Of a DNA stretch of 64,000 bases, positions 490 through 15,468 are shown one piece after another. The DNA lies in contig CALQFM020000014.1 in assembly GCA_943329845.2 (NCBI GenBank), positions 1,509-65,508 of the forward strand, given 5' to 3'. The stretch is from Candidatus Kuenenia stuttgartensis. Its GTDB lineage: Bacteria; Pseudomonadota; Alphaproteobacteria; SMXS01. The notes below the pieces were generated by a model, which was given only the letters and a program-made list of their open reading frames with translations, did no database searches and was not told where the DNA came from. The translations under genes were made by a program, and so were the position numbers. How positions within the stretch are numbered: the first letter of the stretch is position 1; each line of letters begins with the position of its first letter.

Positions 490-595
490 ACTACTTTCCG
501 AGTATAATTGGAAAACTTATAGTAAACTCAATGAGCTAGATGAAATCCGTCACGTTGTTATAGTGCCTGTCGAAGACGACAGGGGAGACACTATC

Positions 596-1954: not shown

Positions 1955-2079
1955 TTTCCCGGATGGCGATCCGCCAACGCTTGTTAATGAAGAAGAAAAC
2001 TTTCAGAGATATTTCGTCCTCGCCCCGTTGATACAAATTGATATAGTCCCTGCCGGAATTGACAGGGGAGTGGAACGCC

Positions 2080-3438
<1,359 letters not shown>

Positions 3439-3499
3439 TGCCGGTTTGCCCGCCCGGGCCGCCCATGCATAATGGGCGGACGGAATGGGGAGACCGATC

Positions 3500-4729
3500 A
3501 TGTCCACGGCGAAGCGCGACAAGCCGCTCGACGACTACAGCCTGCTCGACCCGAAGGTGCATGCGTGCCCCTACGAGTTCTTCCAGCGGCTGCGCAGCGA
3601 ATGCCCGGTCTACCGCATGCCGGAGACCGGCACCTACCTGGTTACGCGCTACGACGACATCCGCGCCATCAAGCGGAACTACCAGGACTTCACCTCCAAC
3701 ATCACCTTGCAGGAGCGCGGCCGGCGCGAGGTCCACAAGGAGCACGACCGCATCCTGCAGACCTATGGCTGGGACAACGTCCAGACCCTGCAGCGCACCG
3801 ATCCGCCGGCCCATGCCCGCTGGCGCACCCTGATCGACCGCACCTTCACCGCCAGCCGGGTGCGCGAGATGACGCCGTACATCGACGCCATGGTGGCCGA
3901 GCTGATCGATTCATGGATCGACGACGGCGAATGCGAGTTCGTCACCCAGTTCGCCATCCCGCTGCCGTGCAAGGTGATCGCCGACCAGCTGGGTGTCGAC
4001 CGCGACAATTTCTGGAAGCTCAAGGCCTGGTCCGACGCCATGCTGGAGCCGGGAAGCCCCACCTGCCCGGACGAGCGCGTGATCGAGTGCGCCCACCTGG
4101 TGGTCGAATCCCAGCACTATTTCTACAAGGTGTTCGAGGATCGCCGCCGCGAGCCCAAGGGCGACATCATGTCGGCGCTGGTGCACACCGACATGGGCGG
4201 CGAGGCGCCGCTCACCATGCACGAGCTGCAGAACCTGATGAACCAGCTGCTGACCGGCGGCAACGAGACCACGACCAGCGCCATCTCGCACGCGCTGTGG
4301 AACCTGCTGAAGTTCCCGGAGCAGATGCAGCGGCTGCGCGCCGACCGGTCGCTGCTGAAGAACTTCGTCGAGGAGACGCTGCGCTTCGAGACGCCGGTGC
4401 TGGGCCTCGCTCGCAAGACCACGCGCGACGTCGAAGTGTCTGGAACGACCATCCCGAAGGATGCGCTGGTGGTGCTGACCTATGCCGCCGCCAACCGGGA
4501 CGAAGACAAGTTCGACGACGGCGAGACCTTCGACGTGAGCCGCAAGAATGCCGGCGCCCAGATCGCCTTCGGCATGGGCGCCCATTTCTGCCCGGGCGCC
4601 ATGCTGGCGCGGCAGGAGATCCTCAGCACCTTCGAGGCGCTGCTCGACCGGCTGGACGACATCAGCTTCGCCCGTCCGCTGCCCGAGGAAACCCACCAGC
4701 GGAGCGTCTTCCTGCACCAGATGAAGTAA
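3500..4729 (+). CDS. Cytochrome P450 (1); ends at TAA 4727-4729, apparently 8 codons short of the ancestral stop at 4754-4756
   Basis: I-helix GGNETT, ExxR EETLR, heme motif FGMGAHFCPG. After the TAA the frame continues LPIRFRKR*, matching the end of P450 (2). Confidence 0.92.
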   Translation: MSTAKRDKPLDDYSLLDPKVHACPYEFFQRLRSECPVYRMPETGTYLVTRYDDIRAIKRNYQDFTSNITLQERGRREVHKEHDRILQTYGWDNVQTLQRTDPPAHARWRTLIDRTFTASRVREMTPYIDAMVAELIDSWIDDGECEFVTQFAIPLPCKVIADQLGVDRDNFWKLKAWSDAMLEPGSPTCPDERVIECAHLVVESQHYFYKVFEDRRREPKGDIMSALVHTDMGGEAPLTMHELQNLMNQLLTGGNETTTSAISHALWNLLKFPEQMQRLRADRSLLKNFVEETLRFETPVLGLARKTTRDVEVSGTTIPKDALVVLTYAAANRDEDKFDDGETFDVSRKNAGAQIAFGMGAHFCPGAMLARQEILSTFEALLDRLDDISFARPLPEETHQRSVFLHQMK

Positions 4730-4825
4730 CTGCCGATCCGCTTCAGGAAACGCTGAGGCTTGCGGCACCTGCTGCCGGGTGTAAATATCAGCCCGGAGAA
4801 TTCAGCGCATGAACGGGGACAGACC

Positions 4826-6100
4826 ATGAGCACGCTTGCCGAAAAGCCGACTGGAACGGCGCTGCCGATCGAGGGCTTCAACCCGCTCGACCGCAAGGTG
4901 CAGGGTTGCCCCTATCCCTATTACCAGACCATGCGCGCCCAGTGTCCGGTCTATCCCAGCCCGCAGACCGGCATGTACTACGTCACCAAATACGACGACA
5001 TCCGCTTCATCAAGAAGCGGCCCGACCTGTTCACGTCGGACATGACGCACAGTTCGCGCTCAGGCCGCCGCGACGTGTTCGAGCGTCACGAGAACGTTCT
5101 CAGCACTTATGGCTGGGCTCATGTCCAGGTGCTGCAGCGGACCGATCCGCCCGCCCACAACCGCTGGCGGCAATATATCGACCGCACCTTCACGGCCAGC
5201 CGCGTCAACGAGATGAAGCCCTATGTGGACCAGATGGTGCACGAGCTGGTCGACGCCTTCATCGGCCAGGGCGAATGCGAGTTCGTCGCCGACTTCTGCG
5301 TGCCGCTTCCCTGCAAGGTGATCGCCGACCAGCTCGGCCTGCCGAATGACCAGTACCTGCGGCTGAAATCCTGGTCCGACGCCATGCTGATGCCCGGCGG
5401 CCTGATGGCCACCGACGAAGAGATCGACCGCTGCGCCTGGATCGAGCTCGATGCCCAGCATTTCTTCTACAAGGTGTTCGAGGACAGGCGGAAAAATCCC
5501 CAGAACGACATCATGTCGGTGCTGGTCAACACCCGCTTCGAGGGCGAGGAGCCCATGTCCATGCACGAGCTGCAGAACATGATGCACCAGCTCATCACCG
5601 GTGGGAACGAGACCACCACCAGCGCGCTGGCCCATGGCCTGTGGAACCTGCTGAAGAACCCTTCCGAGATGGCCAAGCTGCGCGCCGACCGGTCGCTGAT
5701 CAGGAATTTCGTCGAGGAGACGCTGCGCTACGAAACGCCGGTGCTCGGCCTGTTCCGCCAGGCGACGCAGGACGTCGAGCTGAGCGGCACCACGATCCCC
5801 GCCGGCACCATCGTCTTCATGGCCTATGGCTCGGCCAACCGGGACGAGGAAAAATTCGACGACGGCGAGACCTTCGACGTCAGCCGCAAGAATGCCGGCG
5901 CCCAGATCGCCTTCGGCATGGGCACCCATTTCTGCCCCGGCGCCATGCTGGCGCGGCGCGAGATGCAGTCGGCGTTCGAGATCCTGCTCGACCGGGTCGA
6001 TGACATTCAGCTGGCCTGCCCGCTCGACGAGTTCACCCACGAGCCGAGCATCTTCCTGCATCAGCTCAAGGAACTGCCGATCCGGTTCAAGGCGCGGTAG
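4826..6100 (+). CDS. Cytochrome P450 (2)
   Basis: GGNETT, EETLR and FGMGTHFCPG motifs. ATG 4826 follows an ACGGGGAC RBS-like tract. Confidence 0.95.
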   Translation: MSTLAEKPTGTALPIEGFNPLDRKVQGCPYPYYQTMRAQCPVYPSPQTGMYYVTKYDDIRFIKKRPDLFTSDMTHSSRSGRRDVFERHENVLSTYGWAHVQVLQRTDPPAHNRWRQYIDRTFTASRVNEMKPYVDQMVHELVDAFIGQGECEFVADFCVPLPCKVIADQLGLPNDQYLRLKSWSDAMLMPGGLMATDEEIDRCAWIELDAQHFFYKVFEDRRKNPQNDIMSVLVNTRFEGEEPMSMHELQNMMHQLITGGNETTTSALAHGLWNLLKNPSEMAKLRADRSLIRNFVEETLRYETPVLGLFRQATQDVELSGTTIPAGTIVFMAYGSANRDEEKFDDGETFDVSRKNAGAQIAFGMGTHFCPGAMLARREMQSAFEILLDRVDDIQLACPLDEFTHEPSIFLHQLKELPIRFKAR

Positions 6101-9890: not shown

Positions 9891-9912
9891 GGGCCCCTTA
9901 GGCTCCGCCTTT

Positions 9913-10048
9913 ATTGTCACCCCGGACTTGTTCCGGGGTCTGTCGGCCCGCTTGAAGATTGCTTCGCGCTCTGTCCGAACACCTGTGCGCGTCCCGCATG
10001 GCGCTCCTCGCCTCGACACAGACCCCGGAACAAGTCCGGGGTGACAAT
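9913..10048. repeat. REPIN-like element: perfect 31-bp inverted repeats, each arm itself a hairpin
   Basis: ATTGTCACCCCGGACTTGTTCCGGGGTCTGT (9913-9943) and its exact reverse complement (10018-10048). Each arm has an internal CCCCGGA/TCCGGGG palindrome next to GTCA. Confidence 0.9.
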
Positions 10049-10069
10049 CAGGGTGAGGCGGGGGTCGGG

Positions 10070-10837
10070 CTAAAAAATCGGCCCGATGATGCCCAGCTGC
10101 GCGGCCTTCGCCACCGCCTGCGTGCGCGTCACGGCGTTCAGCTTCTGGGCGGCGTTTTCGATGTGGAAGCGCGCGGTGGACGGCGAGAACGCCAGGATGA
10201 CCGCGATCTCCTGATCGGTCTTGCCGCGCGCGGCCCAGGTCAGGCATTCGATCTCGCGGCTGGTCAGGTAGATGAAGCCGGTCTCGGGAGCCTCGATGCC
10301 GCGCGCGGTGTCGGCGATCTGCATGAACTGAAGGGCAGCGAGCAGCAGCGCGCGACGGTGCTCGCGCCAGATCGGCTCGATGTCCAGCGCCGGATCCCGG
10401 CTCAGCCACGAGACAGACCCGACCCTTCCGCGCGAGAGATGCGTCGGCACGATGATGGCGCCGTGGATGCCCTGGCTGACCTGCCACTCGAGCACCTTGC
10501 GCTGGATCGGCTCCAGCGCCTGCTCCTGCGGAAACGGATGGTTGGCCTGCCAGAAGAACGGCAGGTGCTGGAAGCGGCAGGCATGCGTCGTCGGGCTGAT
10601 CAGGGTGTAGTTCTGGTCGACCCATTCGTCGATCGCCGCCTTGCTCCAGCCGAACAGTTCGGCCAGCCGGTTGCCGTCCTCGTCGGTCAGCGGCACCGTG
10701 GTCGAGATGTCGTCGAGCGCGGCGACCAGCGGAATGCCGATCAGCTCGCCGATCCGCCGCAAAAAGCCGACGCCGTCGGCAAGCCGGGTCGCGCGCTCCA
10801 GCGCGTCGAGACATGCATTGACGTCGTTCGAGCCCAC
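10070..10837 (-). CDS. LuxR-family regulator (autoinducer-binding-type domain + HTH), LuxR solo
   Basis: C-terminal [22 protein letters not shown]...[17 protein letters not shown]. The N-domain aligns to the LasR pocket region. Start GTG 10837 is inferred. No luxI in the window. Confidence 0.88.
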
Positions 10838-10855
10838 CCTCGCTGCGCTCCCACA

Positions 10856-10903
10856 CCCTGTCGATTCCGAGAGGTAGACGTTACAGGGCCGTGCGCCCAA
10901 ACT
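10856..10903 (+). promoter_or_regulatory. Putative lux-box-like site abutting a sigma70-type promoter for P450 (3)
   Basis: CCCTGTCGATTCCGAGAGGT fits NNCT-N12-AGNN. It is followed by TAGACG (10875-10880), 17 bp, then CAAACT (10898-10903). Confidence 0.45.
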
Positions 10904-10935
10904 CCATGTCATCGGGAACACGGGGAAGTGTCTCA

Positions 10936-12180
10936 ATGAACAAGCCAGAGCAGTTCAGCCTGCTGGACCCTGCCGTGCAGCAGTGTCCTTTCGACTATTA
11001 CAGGGTGCTCCGCGAGGAAGCGCCGGTCTACCTGATGCCGGAAACCGGCATGTATATCGTCACGTCCTATGACCTGCTCATGGAGGTAATGAAGAACAAC
11101 AAGGTGTATTCCAATCTCGCCCCCGCCGGCCGCCGCGCCGGCCTGTACTGCGAGGAAGCCGAGCGGATCATCGACGAGAAGGGCTATGGCCGGTTCATGC
11201 CGACCATCGTCAACAACGACCAGCCCGGCCATACGGTCTATCGCGGTCTGGTCAACGACGCCTTCCGCGCTGGCCGGATTCGCCAGATGGAAGCCTACAT
11301 CACCGAGGTGGTGGCCGGCCTGGTCGAGAAGTTCGCCGGCCAGGGGGAATGCGACGCCGTCGCCGACCTGGCCGTACCGGTGCCGATGTATGTGATCGCC
11401 GACCAGCTCGGCGTCCCGCGCGAGGACTTCCAGAAGTTCAAGGAATGGTCCGACGCCTGGGTCATCGGCCTCGGTATGAAGGTGCCGGACGCGGTGCTGA
11501 TCGACGCCGCCGAAAAGGTGGTCGAGATGCAGCACTACATGATCGCCCGCATGGCCGAGCGCCGGATCGAGCCGCGCGACGACATCATGAGCGACCTCGT
11601 CCAGGCCACCTACAATGGCGAGCGGCCGCTTCAGGACAAGGAAGTGTTGTCCATCGTCGAACAGATCCTCGTGGCCGGCAACGAGACCACCACCAACGGC
11701 ATCGCCAACGGCCTGCAGCAGCTTGCCGAGGACCAGGAACTGCAGGCGCGGCTGCGCGCCAACCCGGACCTGCTGCCCAAATTCGTCGAGGAAATCCTGC
11801 GGGTCGAGTCGCCGGTGCAGGGCCTGTTCCGCTATGTGCTGGAGGATACCGAGCTGGGCGGCGTGCGCATCCCGAAGGGCGCGACGGTGATGATCCGCTA
11901 CGCCGCCGGCAACCGGGACGAGGCCAAGTTCGACCACCCCGAGGAGTTCGACCTGGACCGCAAGAACAACGGTGCGCACATCGCGTTCGGCTCGGGCATC
12001 CATCATTGCGTCGGCTCGCAGCTTGCCCGCGCGGAGATGCTGGTCAGCTTTCGCGCTTTCCTGGACCGGTTCAGCCGCTTCGAACTGGCGGTGGCTGCCG
12101 GCGAAATCCACTACCACCCCAGCTTCGCGCTGCGGGGGCCCACCAAACTGCCGCTTCGGCTGATGCCGAAGGCTGGCTGA
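10936..12180 (+). CDS. Cytochrome P450 (3)
   Basis: AGNETT, EEILR and [10 protein letters not shown] motifs. Confidence 0.95.
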
Positions 12181-12240: not shown

Positions 12241-13518
12241 ATGCTGACGGAACAGCAGATCCACGAGATCCGCCAACAGATCGACTTCGAGTTCAAACGA
12301 AAGGGCGCTCCGGCGGGCTTCCCGAAGTTCCCCGACCTGCCGGCGGGGCGCTACAACGATCCGGAGTTCTTCGAACTGGAGAACACGCATTACTGGAGCA
12401 AGGTGTGGATGCTGGCCGGCCACCTGGACGAAATCCCCAATGCCGGCGACTACAAGCTTTGGGACATGGCGCGCCAGCCTGTCGTGATCGTGCACGGCAA
12501 GGATGGCGAGGTCCGCGCCTTCTACAACACCTGCCGTCACCGCGGTGCGCCGGTGGTGACCGAGCAATTCGGCAACGCACCGCATGGCCTGGTCTGCGGC
12601 TATCACGGCTGGGTGTACGACCATGACGGATCGCTCATGAGCATCCGTGACAAGCGCGACTTCGTCGATTTCGACTTCGAATGCCGCAGCTTGTATCCGA
12701 TCCGCACCGAGCGTTACGGCAAGCTGATCTTCGTCAATTTCGATCAGGAAGCCGTGTCGCTGAAGGAATATCTGGGGCCCATCGCCGACGAGTGGAAGGA
12801 ATTCCAGTTCGACAAGCTGCGCCTGGTCGACCGCTATGTGTGGGACCTCAACTGCAACTGGAAGATCGCCATGGAAGCCAACATGGAGGTCTATCACGTC
12901 AAGTCGATCCACCCGCAGACGGTGGATCCCAGCCTGGATTATCGCGGCAACGTCAACACGCTGTATGACGGCGGCCACTCCCGCATGGTGGCGCCGGGCC
13001 GGGAGGGCCGCAACCGCGCGGCCTATGTGAAGGCCAATGAGCACCTGCCGCAGATCGACACCGTGGGCGAGATCGGCCGGACCTGCACCCAGTCCTATCA
13101 TGTCGAGCCCAACTGGGTGTCGCCGCTGGGGCCCATGCTGTTCCCGGTTTTGAACTTCTGGCCGGTCAACATGCGCGAGACCAAGTACGAGATCTGGTGG
13201 TTCGGCGCCGATTGGGGCGATGGCCCGGTCCCGGCCGAGTGGCGCCAGCAGATCGAGGGGTTCAACGTCGTGATCACCGAGGACACCCAGTTCGGCGACT
13301 GGATCCAGAAGTCGGTGGACAGCTACGCGTTCAAGGGCGTGCCCCTGTGCTATCAGGAAGCGCGCATCTACCACGCGCACCAGAACATGGACCATGTGAT
13401 CGGCGTGAACAAGATTCCCGCCCATCTGCGCGCCGAGCCGGTGATCGGCGATGAATGGATCCACCCCAACGACACAAACGAGCGCCTTCGCCAGCATCAG
13501 GCGATGGCGGCCGAGTAA
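12241..13518 (+). CDS. Rieske non-heme iron oxygenase alpha subunit
   Basis: Rieske CRHRG...CGYHGW; NWK...EVYHVKSIH mononuclear iron histidines; C-terminal ED. Confidence 0.93.
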   Translation: MLTEQQIHEIRQQIDFEFKRKGAPAGFPKFPDLPAGRYNDPEFFELENTHYWSKVWMLAGHLDEIPNAGDYKLWDMARQPVVIVHGKDGEVRAFYNTCRHRGAPVVTEQFGNAPHGLVCGYHGWVYDHDGSLMSIRDKRDFVDFDFECRSLYPIRTERYGKLIFVNFDQEAVSLKEYLGPIADEWKEFQFDKLRLVDRYVWDLNCNWKIAMEANMEVYHVKSIHPQTVDPSLDYRGNVNTLYDGGHSRMVAPGREGRNRAAYVKANEHLPQIDTVGEIGRTCTQSYHVEPNWVSPLGPMLFPVLNFWPVNMRETKYEIWWFGADWGDGPVPAEWRQQIEGFNVVITEDTQFGDWIQKSVDSYAFKGVPLCYQEARIYHAHQNMDHVIGVNKIPAHLRAEPVIGDEWIHPNDTNERLRQHQAMAAE

Positions 13519-13566: not shown

Positions 13567-13594
13567 ACTCATGTCTGAACGGGGAGAAAAAACC

Positions 13595-14134
13595 ATGAGC
13601 CTGATCCGCTATCCGATCCAGCAATATGCCTATGTGGTCGACGACATCGAAGCGGCGTGCATGCGCTGGGTCGATCTGGTCGGTGCCGGGCCGTTCTTCC
13701 TGATGCCGCACCACAAGTCGCGCGACACCGTCTATCGCGGCAAGCCTTGCGACGTGGACGTGTCCTACGCCTTCGGCCAGGCGGGGCCGGCGCACATCCA
13801 ACTGATCCAGGTCCATAACGACGAGCCGTCCTGCTACGGCGACATGTACAAGAAGGGCGAGCAGGGCTTCCACCACTTCGCCATCCTCGTTCCCGATATC
13901 GACGAGGAGAAGCGGCGCTTCGAGAAGGCCGGTTGCGAAACGGTGACCGAGCTGTTCTCGTCGGCGCGCGTCGCCTACATGGATGCCCGGCACCTGTTCG
14001 GCTGCTTCGTCGAGCTCTACCAGGACAACCCGCAGGTCCGCGGTTCATTCCAGGAATGGAAAGACCTGCACGATGCCTGGGACGGCAAGACCGACCCGAT
14101 CCGCGTCCGCCACTGGACCCCGCCAACGGAGTAG
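13595..14134 (+). CDS. VOC/glyoxalase-family protein
   Basis: QQYAYVVDDIE...HIQLIQ...GFHHFAIL...FVELYQ metal-site pattern. Confidence 0.8.
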   Translation: MSLIRYPIQQYAYVVDDIEAACMRWVDLVGAGPFFLMPHHKSRDTVYRGKPCDVDVSYAFGQAGPAHIQLIQVHNDEPSCYGDMYKKGEQGFHHFAILVPDIDEEKRRFEKAGCETVTELFSSARVAYMDARHLFGCFVELYQDNPQVRGSFQEWKDLHDAWDGKTDPIRVRHWTPPTE

Positions 14135-14244: not shown

Positions 14245-15468
14245 ATGACTGAAGCCAGGCGCGGGCCGCTCGACGGCATCCGGGTTATCGACATGTCGAC
14301 CGTGCTGCTCGGTCCCTATGCGGGACAGATCATGGGCGATCTGGGCGCCGACGTGATCCGGGTCGAATCGCCGAAGGCCGACATGACACGCTGGGCGGGA
14401 CCATCGGCTCATCCCGGCTTCTCGCCCATCTTCATGAACTGCAACCGCAACAAGCGGTCGCTGTGCCTCGACCTGAAGAAGGACGGGGCAAAGGAGGCGC
14501 TGGTCGAACTGGTCAGGACCGCAGACGTGTTCCTTCACAACGTCCGGCTGGAGGCCATCGAGCGCCTCGGCCTGGGCTATGAGGCGGTCCGTGCCATCCG
14601 GCCTGACATCGTCTATGTCCACTGCGTCGGCTATGGCAGCGAGGGCGCCTATGCGGGGCGTCCGGCCTATGACGACCTGGTTCAGGCGGCGTCCAGCGCG
14701 GTCAGCCTCAACCGCCTGATCGATCCGGACGAGGAGCCGCGCTACATCGCCACGCTCGCCGCCGACAAGACCACCGGACTGCATGCCGCCTACGCGACGT
14801 TTGCCGCCCTGTTCCACCGGGAACGGACGGGCGAGGGCCAGTTCGTCGAGGTGCCCATGCTGGAAAGCTTCGCATCGTTCCTGATGATCGAGCACATGAG
14901 CGGCCACACCTGGGAGCCGCCGCAGGGCGACTACGGCTACCACCGCATCATCAACATCAACCGCAAGCCGTACCGGACGAAGGACGGCTATATCTGTATC
15001 ATGCCCTATTCGACCGACCAGTGGCGCCAGGCGCTGCGCATGGGCGGCATCCCGATCACCGATGACGACCCGCGGCTGCAGACCATGGGCGGCCTCGCCC
15101 GGCATTTCCGCGAGCTCTACGGCCTGCTGTGCGAGGTCACGGTGACCCGGACCAGCGACGAGTGGATGACCCTGCTGACCGATCATGACATCCCGGTGAT
15201 GCGGGTGAACCGGGTCGAGGATCTGAAGACCGAGGAGCACCTGTCGAGCGTCGACTTCTTCGAGCAGCGCACGCATCCCACCGAAGGCGTGTACCGCTCC
15301 ATGCGCCAGCCGGTCAAGTTCGCGCAAACGCCCGCGTCGGTCCGCCGCGACCCGCCGGGTCTGGGCGAGCATAACCGGGAGGTACTGCTGGAGGCGGGGC
15401 TGAGCGCCGAGACCGTCAGCGCGCTGGAAGCATCAGGCGCGCTGCACAGCCGGTTGCCGAAGGATTAG
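14245..15468 (+). CDS. Family III CoA-transferase (CaiB/BaiF)
   Basis: GPLDGIRVIDMS, LGDLGADVIRVE, NRNKRSLCLDLK and PAYDDLVQA motifs. Confidence 0.93.
   Translation: MTEARRGPLDGIRVIDMSTVLLGPYAGQIMGDLGADVIRVESPKADMTRWAGPSAHPGFSPIFMNCNRNKRSLCLDLKKDGAKEALVELVRTADVFLHNVRLEAIERLGLGYEAVRAIRPDIVYVHCVGYGSEGAYAGRPAYDDLVQAASSAVSLNRLIDPDEEPRYIATLAADKTTGLHAAYATFAALFHRERTGEGQFVEVPMLESFASFLMIEHMSGHTWEPPQGDYGYHRIININRKPYRTKDGYICIMPYSTDQWRQALRMGGIPITDDDPRLQTMGGLARHFRELYGLLCEVTVTRTSDEWMTLLTDHDIPVMRVNRVEDLKTEEHLSSVDFFEQRTHPTEGVYRSMRQPVKFAQTPASVRRDPPGLGEHNREVLLEAGLSAETVSALEASGALHSRLPKD

Follow-up and report, generated by a model that had tools for sequence, protein, structure and literature searches.

A LuxR-type solo with a non-canonical ligand pocket beside a conserved lux-type box and an oxygenase gene row

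LuxR solos are common, and most of them are without both a ligand and a target. The solo gene described here, which stands divergent from a row of oxygenase genes in the window (the whole stretch of DNA that was analyzed, 64,000 nucleotides long), raises both questions: what would its product sense, and which promoters would it govern? The initial annotation had read it as a LuxR with a rebuilt ligand pocket, repurposed as the substrate sensor of the adjacent operon and activating it from a lux-box-like site.

The solo gene, its fold and its ligand pocket

The luxR-family solo was placed at 10070..10837 on the minus strand, where it encodes 255 aa from a GTG start. On the minus strand, a TTG opens a frame that covers 10070-10936, and the gene had been taken to extend over 10070-10935. 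However, homologues are 255 aa long, and the window GTG at 10835-10837 is aligned with an ATG in six orthologous loci, so that the start was corrected to 10837. The intergenic region therefore spans 10838-10935, 98 bp up to the P450 start codon (10936). Pfam detected Autoind_bind (PF03472; 51.5 bits against a cut-off of 23, profile positions 38-145 of 149) and, at the C-terminus, GerE (53 bits, cut-off 23.5). The GerE helix-turn-helix keeps E195, L199, and G205 with the same 4- and 6-residue spacing as E178, L182, and G188 (TraR numbering), and R194, E195, and G205 were invariant in the alignment of canonical and clade sequences. The solved structures closest in sequence are RhlR, LasR, QscR, SdiA, TraR, and CviR. 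An AlphaFold model (pLDDT 87.6) returned TraR, LasR, QscR, CviR, RhlR, and SdiA as top Foldseek matches over the full length, with a probability of 1.0. The product is a genuine LuxR-type two-domain regulator.

Five Autoind_bind genes were found in the genome (G000; 3.68 Mb, 107 contigs). Its single luxI (PF00765) lies on contig C50, beside a canonical luxR, and the earlier statement that no luxI is near the solo thus holds. The paralogue on contig C77 belongs to the same clade as the solo (37% identity, motif FGW...W...ISP). The recognition helices read TARFHIEN in the solo, TVRFHLEN in the C77 paralogue, and GVEFHVRN in the canonical C50 LuxR. It should be noted that an Autoind_bind match of 90 bits at G000:C7:45273-45680 lies within a 954-aa open frame, much beyond normal LuxR length; either a fusion or, in GC-rich DNA, an open frame that runs on too far could account for it.

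In LasR numbering, the ligand pocket of the solo carries Y56>W, W60>A, Y64>W, and D73>S and keeps P74, W88, and S129. These assignments come from gap-free alignments with the canonical LuxR of the same genome (contig C50, motif NYSNDWLSQYAANRWDKFDP) and with LasR, the latter anchored at D73-P74, and they agree with the changes at W60, Y64, and D73 and the retention of P74 and W88 that had been noted in the initial annotation. The HMMER alignment places a one-residue gap that gives W60>I and Y64>V instead; the loss of W60 and D73 is common to both alignments. The canonical LuxR signature consists of W57, Y61, D70, P71, W85, and G113 in TraR numbering (PMC10134790). At these six ligand-domain residues, the solo reads A-W-S-P-W-A in place of W-Y-D-P-W-G, with P and W alone retained.

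The residues that anchor acyl-homoserine lactones (AHLs) are thus replaced, as the term "rebuilt" implied, but the change is not local: it is an old signature found across a clade (125 full-length representatives). The clade, defined by E <= 1e-30 against a clade profile, comprises about 230 50%-identity clusters in metagenomes, at loci labeled mainly Alpha- and Gammaproteobacteria. Residues were counted in an alignment of the 125 full-length representatives of 50%-identity clusters (126 sequences), most of which show the signature GW-x3-(F/L/A)-x3-W-x8-(S/C/H/N/A)-P. The equivalents of Y56 and Y64 are W in 100/126 and 92/126 sequences, respectively, P74 is retained in 97/126, and the equivalent of D73 is S in 50/126 and D in just 13/126. 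The W60 equivalent is variable (F in 36 sequences, L in 15, W in 9, with V, I, A, and others in the rest), and T, R, F/Y, and H of the recognition helix are nearly invariant. Taken together, the luxR product most likely senses a non-AHL small molecule and thereby controls catabolism. The variability of the W60 position amid a fixed framework, and the pairing of paralogues with different oxygenase clusters, would fit the sensing of a substrate or intermediate.

How does this pocket compare with those of known solos? In plant-associated LuxR solos, linkage to a proline iminopeptidase (pip) gene is typical. The solo has no pip linkage; its neighbors are P450 and acyl-CoA dehydrogenase genes, and the organism comes from freshwater metagenomes, not plants. 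Among the plant-associated proteins, OryR, XccR, PsoR, PipR, and NesR are unpaired, as the solo is, and do not respond to AHLs; they share Y61W with it, in line with the earlier remark that Y>W also occurs in plant-signal-responsive solos, but they combine this change with W57M and keep D70 (PMC10134790), whereas the solo has W57>A and D70>S. The Photorhabdus receptors of pyrones and dialkylresorcinols, PluR and PauR, resemble the solo in having a remodeled six-residue signature (TYDQCS and TYDQYI, respectively, both keeping Y61 and D70) and bind non-AHL ligands (PMC10134790). However, their signals are self-made, their synthase genes are adjacent, and they lie outside catabolic clusters, whereas the AWSPWA signature of the solo is found amid catabolic genes, not ketosynthase or Dar genes. 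AvhR (W57F, D70S, W85R) has D70S in common with the solo, and the same change is recorded in some rhizobial solos, also unpaired LuxR homologues (PMC4338825); the A. vitis entries matched the solo weakly (E 3e-10 and 3e-4). Non-AHL LuxR solos are therefore already known, but an oxygenase-linked LuxR group receives no mention in two solo surveys, and the clade with this linkage is undescribed there (PMC10134790, PMC4338825).

The intergenic box and the divergent gene row

The conserved core of the intergenic alignment is a candidate lux-type box, CCCTGTCGATTCCGAGAGGT, at 10856..10875 on the plus strand. Its left edge lies 18 nt from the luxR start codon. The orthologue box reads ACCTGTCGATTCCGAGAGGT and matches at 7/10 dyad pairs (6-7/10 overall). 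A putative activator-dependent promoter of the P450 row was read from the sequence at 10875..10903 (plus strand), with TAGACG (10875-10880) as the -35 element, N17, and CAAACT (10898-10903) as the -10 element, so that box and -35 hexamer share one base, position 10875. Neither the intergenic region nor the operon gave a promoter in a strict sigma-70 scan, as expected of a weak, activator-dependent promoter; the box center, predicted from these hexamers that fall below the strict scan, would lie near -44. In class II geometry, which LuxR and TraR use, the box is centered near -42.5 and overlaps the -35 element.

Conservation follows the same elements. In the intergenic alignment of seven loci, TAGACGTTACAGG and CAAACTCCA are invariant and ACCTGTCGATTCCGAGAGGTAGACGTTACAGG, CAAACTCCA, and the Shine-Dalgarno region essentially so, while the 20 bp adjoining the luxR start vary freely. 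The segment 10856-10875 is also the sole match in the 3.68-Mb genome at <=3 mismatches to the orthologue consensus. The pattern NNCT-N12-AGNN alone is at chance level; the box exceeds chance because it is conserved in the orthologous loci and because related boxes recur in promoter positions elsewhere. On these grounds, we take the 20-mer to be a real cis-element. The initial annotation had described it as a lux-box-like 20-mer abutting TAGACG-N17-CAAACT, and it emerges as a conserved element with a predicted class II geometry and a one-base overlap with the -35 hexamer.

The arrangement resembles those of LuxR (V. fischeri) and TraR (A. tumefaciens) in its Autoind_bind and GerE domains, the 20-bp CT-N12-AG dyad, the predicted overlap with a weak -35 element, and the divergent gene pair. 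Against the V. fischeri lux box, ACCTGTAGGATCGTACAGGT, the window box is identical at 13/20 bases and the orthologue box at 14/20. The solo differs from both systems in that its AHL anchors are replaced, that it has no adjacent luxI, and that its candidate targets are dispersed oxygenase and uptake promoters, some of them with boxes in repressing positions.

Four plus-strand genes form the divergent row: a cytochrome P450 of 414 aa (10936..12180; Pfam p450, 129 bits), which is the first gene, a Rieske oxygenase alpha subunit of 425 aa (12241..13518; Pfam Rieske and Ring_hydroxyl_A), a VOC/glyoxalase-fold protein of 187 aa (13571..14134; Pfam Glyoxalase_4), and a family III CoA-transferase of 407 aa (14245..15468; Pfam CoA_transf_3, 351 bits). 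Among bacterial class I P450s, the nearest solved relatives of the P450 include the reconstructed sterol C26-monooxygenases CYP125 and CYP142. The N-terminal half of the Rieske protein is CntA/GbcA-like and the remainder resembles aromatic RHO alpha subunits, and the VOC protein matches methylmalonyl-CoA epimerase weakly. None of ten proteins tested, the Rieske protein included, matched an NCBIfam equivalog. With no equivalog and with mixed PDB neighbors (CYP125/CYP142, CntA/GbcA, aromatic RHO), naming the pathway was dropped.

The CoA-transferase gene is followed by an EthD gene, which is oriented oppositely, and by a gene for a GPH-type transporter. The other flank of luxR holds genes for two acyl-CoA dehydrogenase subunits and a GST, and beyond them two P450 genes (3485-4729 and 4760-6100), which follow an MFS gene, and two MFS genes. 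No second transcription factor was found among the ORFs scanned in this island. Between the 3' ends of an acyl-CoA dehydrogenase gene and luxR, there is a 146-bp element (9908-10053) with 36-nt terminal inverted repeats that are 94% complementary; since at least nine other contigs carry complete or partial copies, it looks like a MITE- or REP-like repeat.

The divergent P450-Rieske-VOC-CoA-transferase row is kept in all six loci whose LuxR is 82-96% identical to the solo, and the gene arrangement that had been proposed from the window is thus conserved in all close orthologous loci. Solo orthologues were present in 9/9 same-genus genomes and homologues at 45-58% identity in 3/3 same-family genomes, while eight genomes searched from other families of the class gave no homologue at E <= 1e-30. 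Clade members at 38-58% identity adjoin CoA-transferase, P450, or Rieske genes, and one from Bradyrhizobium adjoins a thiolase/ChsH2-DUF35/hydratase/CoA-transferase cluster. It is important to note that this genome has 47 P450 (PF00067) matches, or roughly 42 genes, and 58 matches to the Rieske ring-hydroxylating alpha subunit (PF00848), an unusually high oxygenase load for 3.68 Mb. With some 100 P450/Rieske matches, the adjacency of the solo to oxygenase genes is less surprising here than it would be elsewhere.

Two further features of the orthologous operons were observed. In L007-L009, the Rieske protein is just 79-80% identical to that of the window, compared with 90-96% for the flanking P450, VOC, and CoA-transferase proteins, which suggests allele replacement or recombination within the operon. 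L010 has an additional clade paralogue (2811-3518; 40% identity), which interrupts the operon between its VOC and CoA-transferase genes.

Similar boxes at other loci

The box had been described as driving the oxygenase operon. It is indeed conserved at the P450 promoter, but it is not private to it: related boxes were located at nine or more sites in the genome. A scan with the orthologue consensus, allowing <=5 mismatches, returned 17 matches against 31 expected under a first-order Markov model. The near-match count was accordingly rejected as evidence, the signal being in placement and conservation only. The scan placed boxes 57 and 64 nt before the start codons of two tandem Rieske genes on contig C58, 67 nt before that of a Rieske gene on C12, and 57 nt before that of a P450 gene on C82. 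In the window, it placed CCCTGCCGGAATTGACAGGG at 2048..2067 (plus strand), ahead of an MFS gene (2080-3438) whose GTG follows after 12 nt.

A PWM trained on six sites (the query, C58 twice, C12, C82, and the MFS site 2048-2067) added three more. One, GCCTGTCGAAGACGACAGGG at 565..584 on the plus strand, lies 11 nt before the GTG (596) of the paralogous MFS gene, which extends to 1954 and has a Pfam MFS_1 match. The others are located 61 nt before an ExbB-ExbD-TonB operon on C29 and beside a VOC gene at C58:7694. An extended -10-like element, TGATATAGT, directly precedes the box at 2048-2067, and TGTTATAGT directly precedes the one at 565-584. The tandem MFS genes (563-1954 and 2059-3438) encode proteins that are 70% identical, and each has a -10-like TGnTATAGT, a box, and a GGAG motif.

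By our estimate, about 0.05 chance matches would fall in the -40 to -100 zones of the roughly 100 P450/Rieske matches, whereas 4 were observed in addition to the query site. The one-base overlap recurs, by eye, at the C58 promoters and at C82: there, the box ends on the first base of a -35-like TGACAG or TGACGG, followed by N17 and then GATAAT, CACAGT, or TAGCCT. Comparison with same-genus genomes singled out the same segments. Across nine of them, the box marks the exact start of homology at the C58 promoter; it and TGACAG are invariant, the spacer is variable, and GATAAT and the Shine-Dalgarno sequence are conserved. At the C29 ExbB promoter, homology ends exactly at the box, the MFS arrangement TGATATAGT-box-GGAG (site 2048-2067) is conserved in eight genomes, and the right half of the C82 box is conserved. 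Judged by placement and conservation, the related boxes are functional cis-elements in the operator format of the LuxR family. They fall loosely into two subtypes, CCTGTCG...TTCCGA (island sites and C82) and CTATCAGA(G/A)TCGA (C58, C12, and C29).

Which protein would read these boxes? The promoter box of luxI, CCCTACGGAGTACCGTAGGT, has the same frame as the oxygenase boxes but different inner bases. The box of the canonical luxR-luxI pair is a perfect palindrome, CCTACGG AGTA CCGTAGG, in L002 (G000:C50) at ~2452-2471, roughly 70-80 nt upstream of luxI. Inner box bases and recognition helix both differ from those of the canonical pair, which speaks for attributing the CTGTC/CTATC boxes to the clade rather than to the quorum-sensing pair. 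Within the clade, the C77 paralogue has to be considered. Of the five Autoind_bind genes, the solo gene (contig C14) is the only one whose own promoter region contains the box, and a search of the C77 contig found none. In the near-complete relative G003, however, a C77-type paralogue is divergent from a Rieske gene, which is followed by the orthologues of the two boxed C58 Rieske genes, and the distance from paralogue to boxed genes is 1.7-3.3 kb in better-assembled relatives. C77 and C58 are thus probably adjacent in this genome as well, and with the paralogue beside a boxed Rieske cluster, the boxes are not assignable to one paralogue. The two may split or share the sites, and some or all of the remote boxes may belong to the C77 paralogue.

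Beside clade members at 38-58% identity, mostly no recognizable match to the same box was found, only weak or partial resemblances: 16/20 bases near a solo-type gene in L017 (by eye) and, in L027, a PWM match of 19.9 at a distance of some 6.4 kb from the LuxR gene. Conservation of the operator sequence therefore does not extend to the whole clade. A degenerate pattern, CCTRTCNNNNNNGAYAGG with 1 mismatch, was discarded for a presence/absence profile as too noisy, with just 9 plausible matches among 28 in the genome itself.

A proposed regulatory role and its alternatives

From the observed domain architecture and fold, residue changes, box conservation and placement, and synteny, we infer DNA binding by the solo, the sign of its regulation, and the nature of its ligand. 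On balance, we lean toward the reading that a non-AHL ligand-sensing LuxR-type factor, together with its C77 paralogue, governs dispersed oxygenase and uptake promoters through lux-type boxes. The ligand would be a small molecule other than an AHL, with a substrate or intermediate of the surrounding oxygenase/CoA-dependent pathway as the most plausible candidate, and the dimer of the solo would then bind 20-bp lux-type boxes with the half-site ACCTRTCRR. At the promoter of the P450-Rieske-VOC-CoA-transferase row, the class II position would allow it to recruit RNA polymerase and activate transcription. Binding 18 nt from the luxR start codon would probably repress its own gene (negative autoregulation). 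At the two MFS genes, where the box lies just after the -10 element and over the presumed transcription start, the effect would be repression or gating. The C77 paralogue, with its near-identical recognition helix, would share in the control of the dispersed oxygenase and uptake promoters.

In LuxR repressors of the EsaR/ExpR type, a box over the transcription start or 5' leader is the repressing geometry. The boxes at the MFS genes and at luxR are placed like such sites, although EsaR-type proteins are AHL-released repressors with canonical pockets, unlike that of the solo. With boxes in both activating and repressing positions, the sign of control is uncertain. The earlier proposal of a box that drives the operon as an activator agrees with the class II geometry at the P450 gene, but not with the MFS and luxR positions, which suggest repression.

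Three other readings were weighed. The solo could still be an AHL receptor, for the AHL of the C50 LuxI or for foreign AHLs, which would place the oxygenase genes under quorum-sensing control. The genome does have a functional-looking luxR-luxI pair with a perfect palindromic box, the luxI and solo boxes have the CT-N12-AG frame in common, and the solo retains the fold, S129, P74, and W88. In LasR and TraR, published structures show three residues hydrogen-bonding the lactone carbonyl, the amide NH, and the 1-oxo group; all three are replaced in the solo, and D is kept in about 10% of the clade. Residual AHL binding is conceivable, given that S129 and W88 are kept and that other LuxR solos without a known ligand have D70S as well (PMC4338825). 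Even the known non-AHL receptors PluR and PauR and the plant-associated solos keep this Asp (PMC10134790). Given also that inner box bases and recognition helix are unlike those of the canonical pair, we consider an AHL receptor quite unlikely. A regulator that needs no ligand, its N-terminal domain serving as a dimerization scaffold and its activity being set by expression level, proteolysis, or a partner protein, is unlikely too, even though several LuxR solos with degenerate signatures are without a known ligand (PMC4338825) and the negative-autoregulation geometry would permit control through protein abundance alone. Across the roughly 230 clusters, the two Trp, the Pro, and neighboring positions are strongly conserved and the W60 equivalent varies, which fits a maintained pocket with tuned specificity, and paralogues are repeatedly paired with different oxygenase clusters.

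Alternatively, the C77 paralogue or an unrelated regulator might be what binds the boxes, with luxR and the P450 gene adjacent but without direct control. The boxed C58 Rieske genes adjoin a C77-type paralogue in relatives, its helix TVRFHLEN is close to TARFHIEN, and the boxes show the two loose subtypes. Yet box and luxR neighbor are conserved as a unit in all close orthologous loci, C77 itself yielded no box, three boxes lie inside the island, where the ORFs scanned include this luxR but no further regulator, and the 20-bp CT-N12-AG dyad is the LuxR-family operator format. We hold this last reading to be decidedly improbable, and the non-AHL sensor acting with its C77 paralogue is the one that we retain.

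A broader proposal can be made only tentatively, and we doubt it more than we trust it. The clade of about 230 50%-identity clusters would consist of LuxR-fold effector sensors for the oxidative catabolism of complex organic matter that have left cell-cell signaling; paralogues would be tuned at the W60 position to different substrates, and a shared lux-type box code would link dispersed P450, Rieske, TonB, and MFS genes in a single regulon in which oxidation is activated and uptake gated. If the solo itself acts as proposed, catabolic effector sensing would be added to the roles of the quorum-sensing receptor fold, the coordination of some of the ~100 P450/Rieske matches in 3.7 Mb would be explained, and new pairs of ligand-responsive regulator and promoter would become available for biosensors. 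The solo described here provides a defined candidate operator, conserved target promoters, and a clade-wide pocket signature, and its genomic context narrows the ligand search to substrates and intermediates of P450/Rieske/CoA-dependent pathways.

With regard to possible precedents, the PheR paper (PMC13273656) proved irrelevant, PheR being an IclR repressor; it does cite a 2025 report in which a "LuxR solo" of Rhodococcus controls genes for dibenzofuran. Finally, P0092, P0093, P0095, P0098, and others in the representative library are 2,800-7,700 aa long with 9-24 separate GerE-part matches each, apparently giant proteins in which the LuxR-type helix-turn-helix is repeated many times in tandem.
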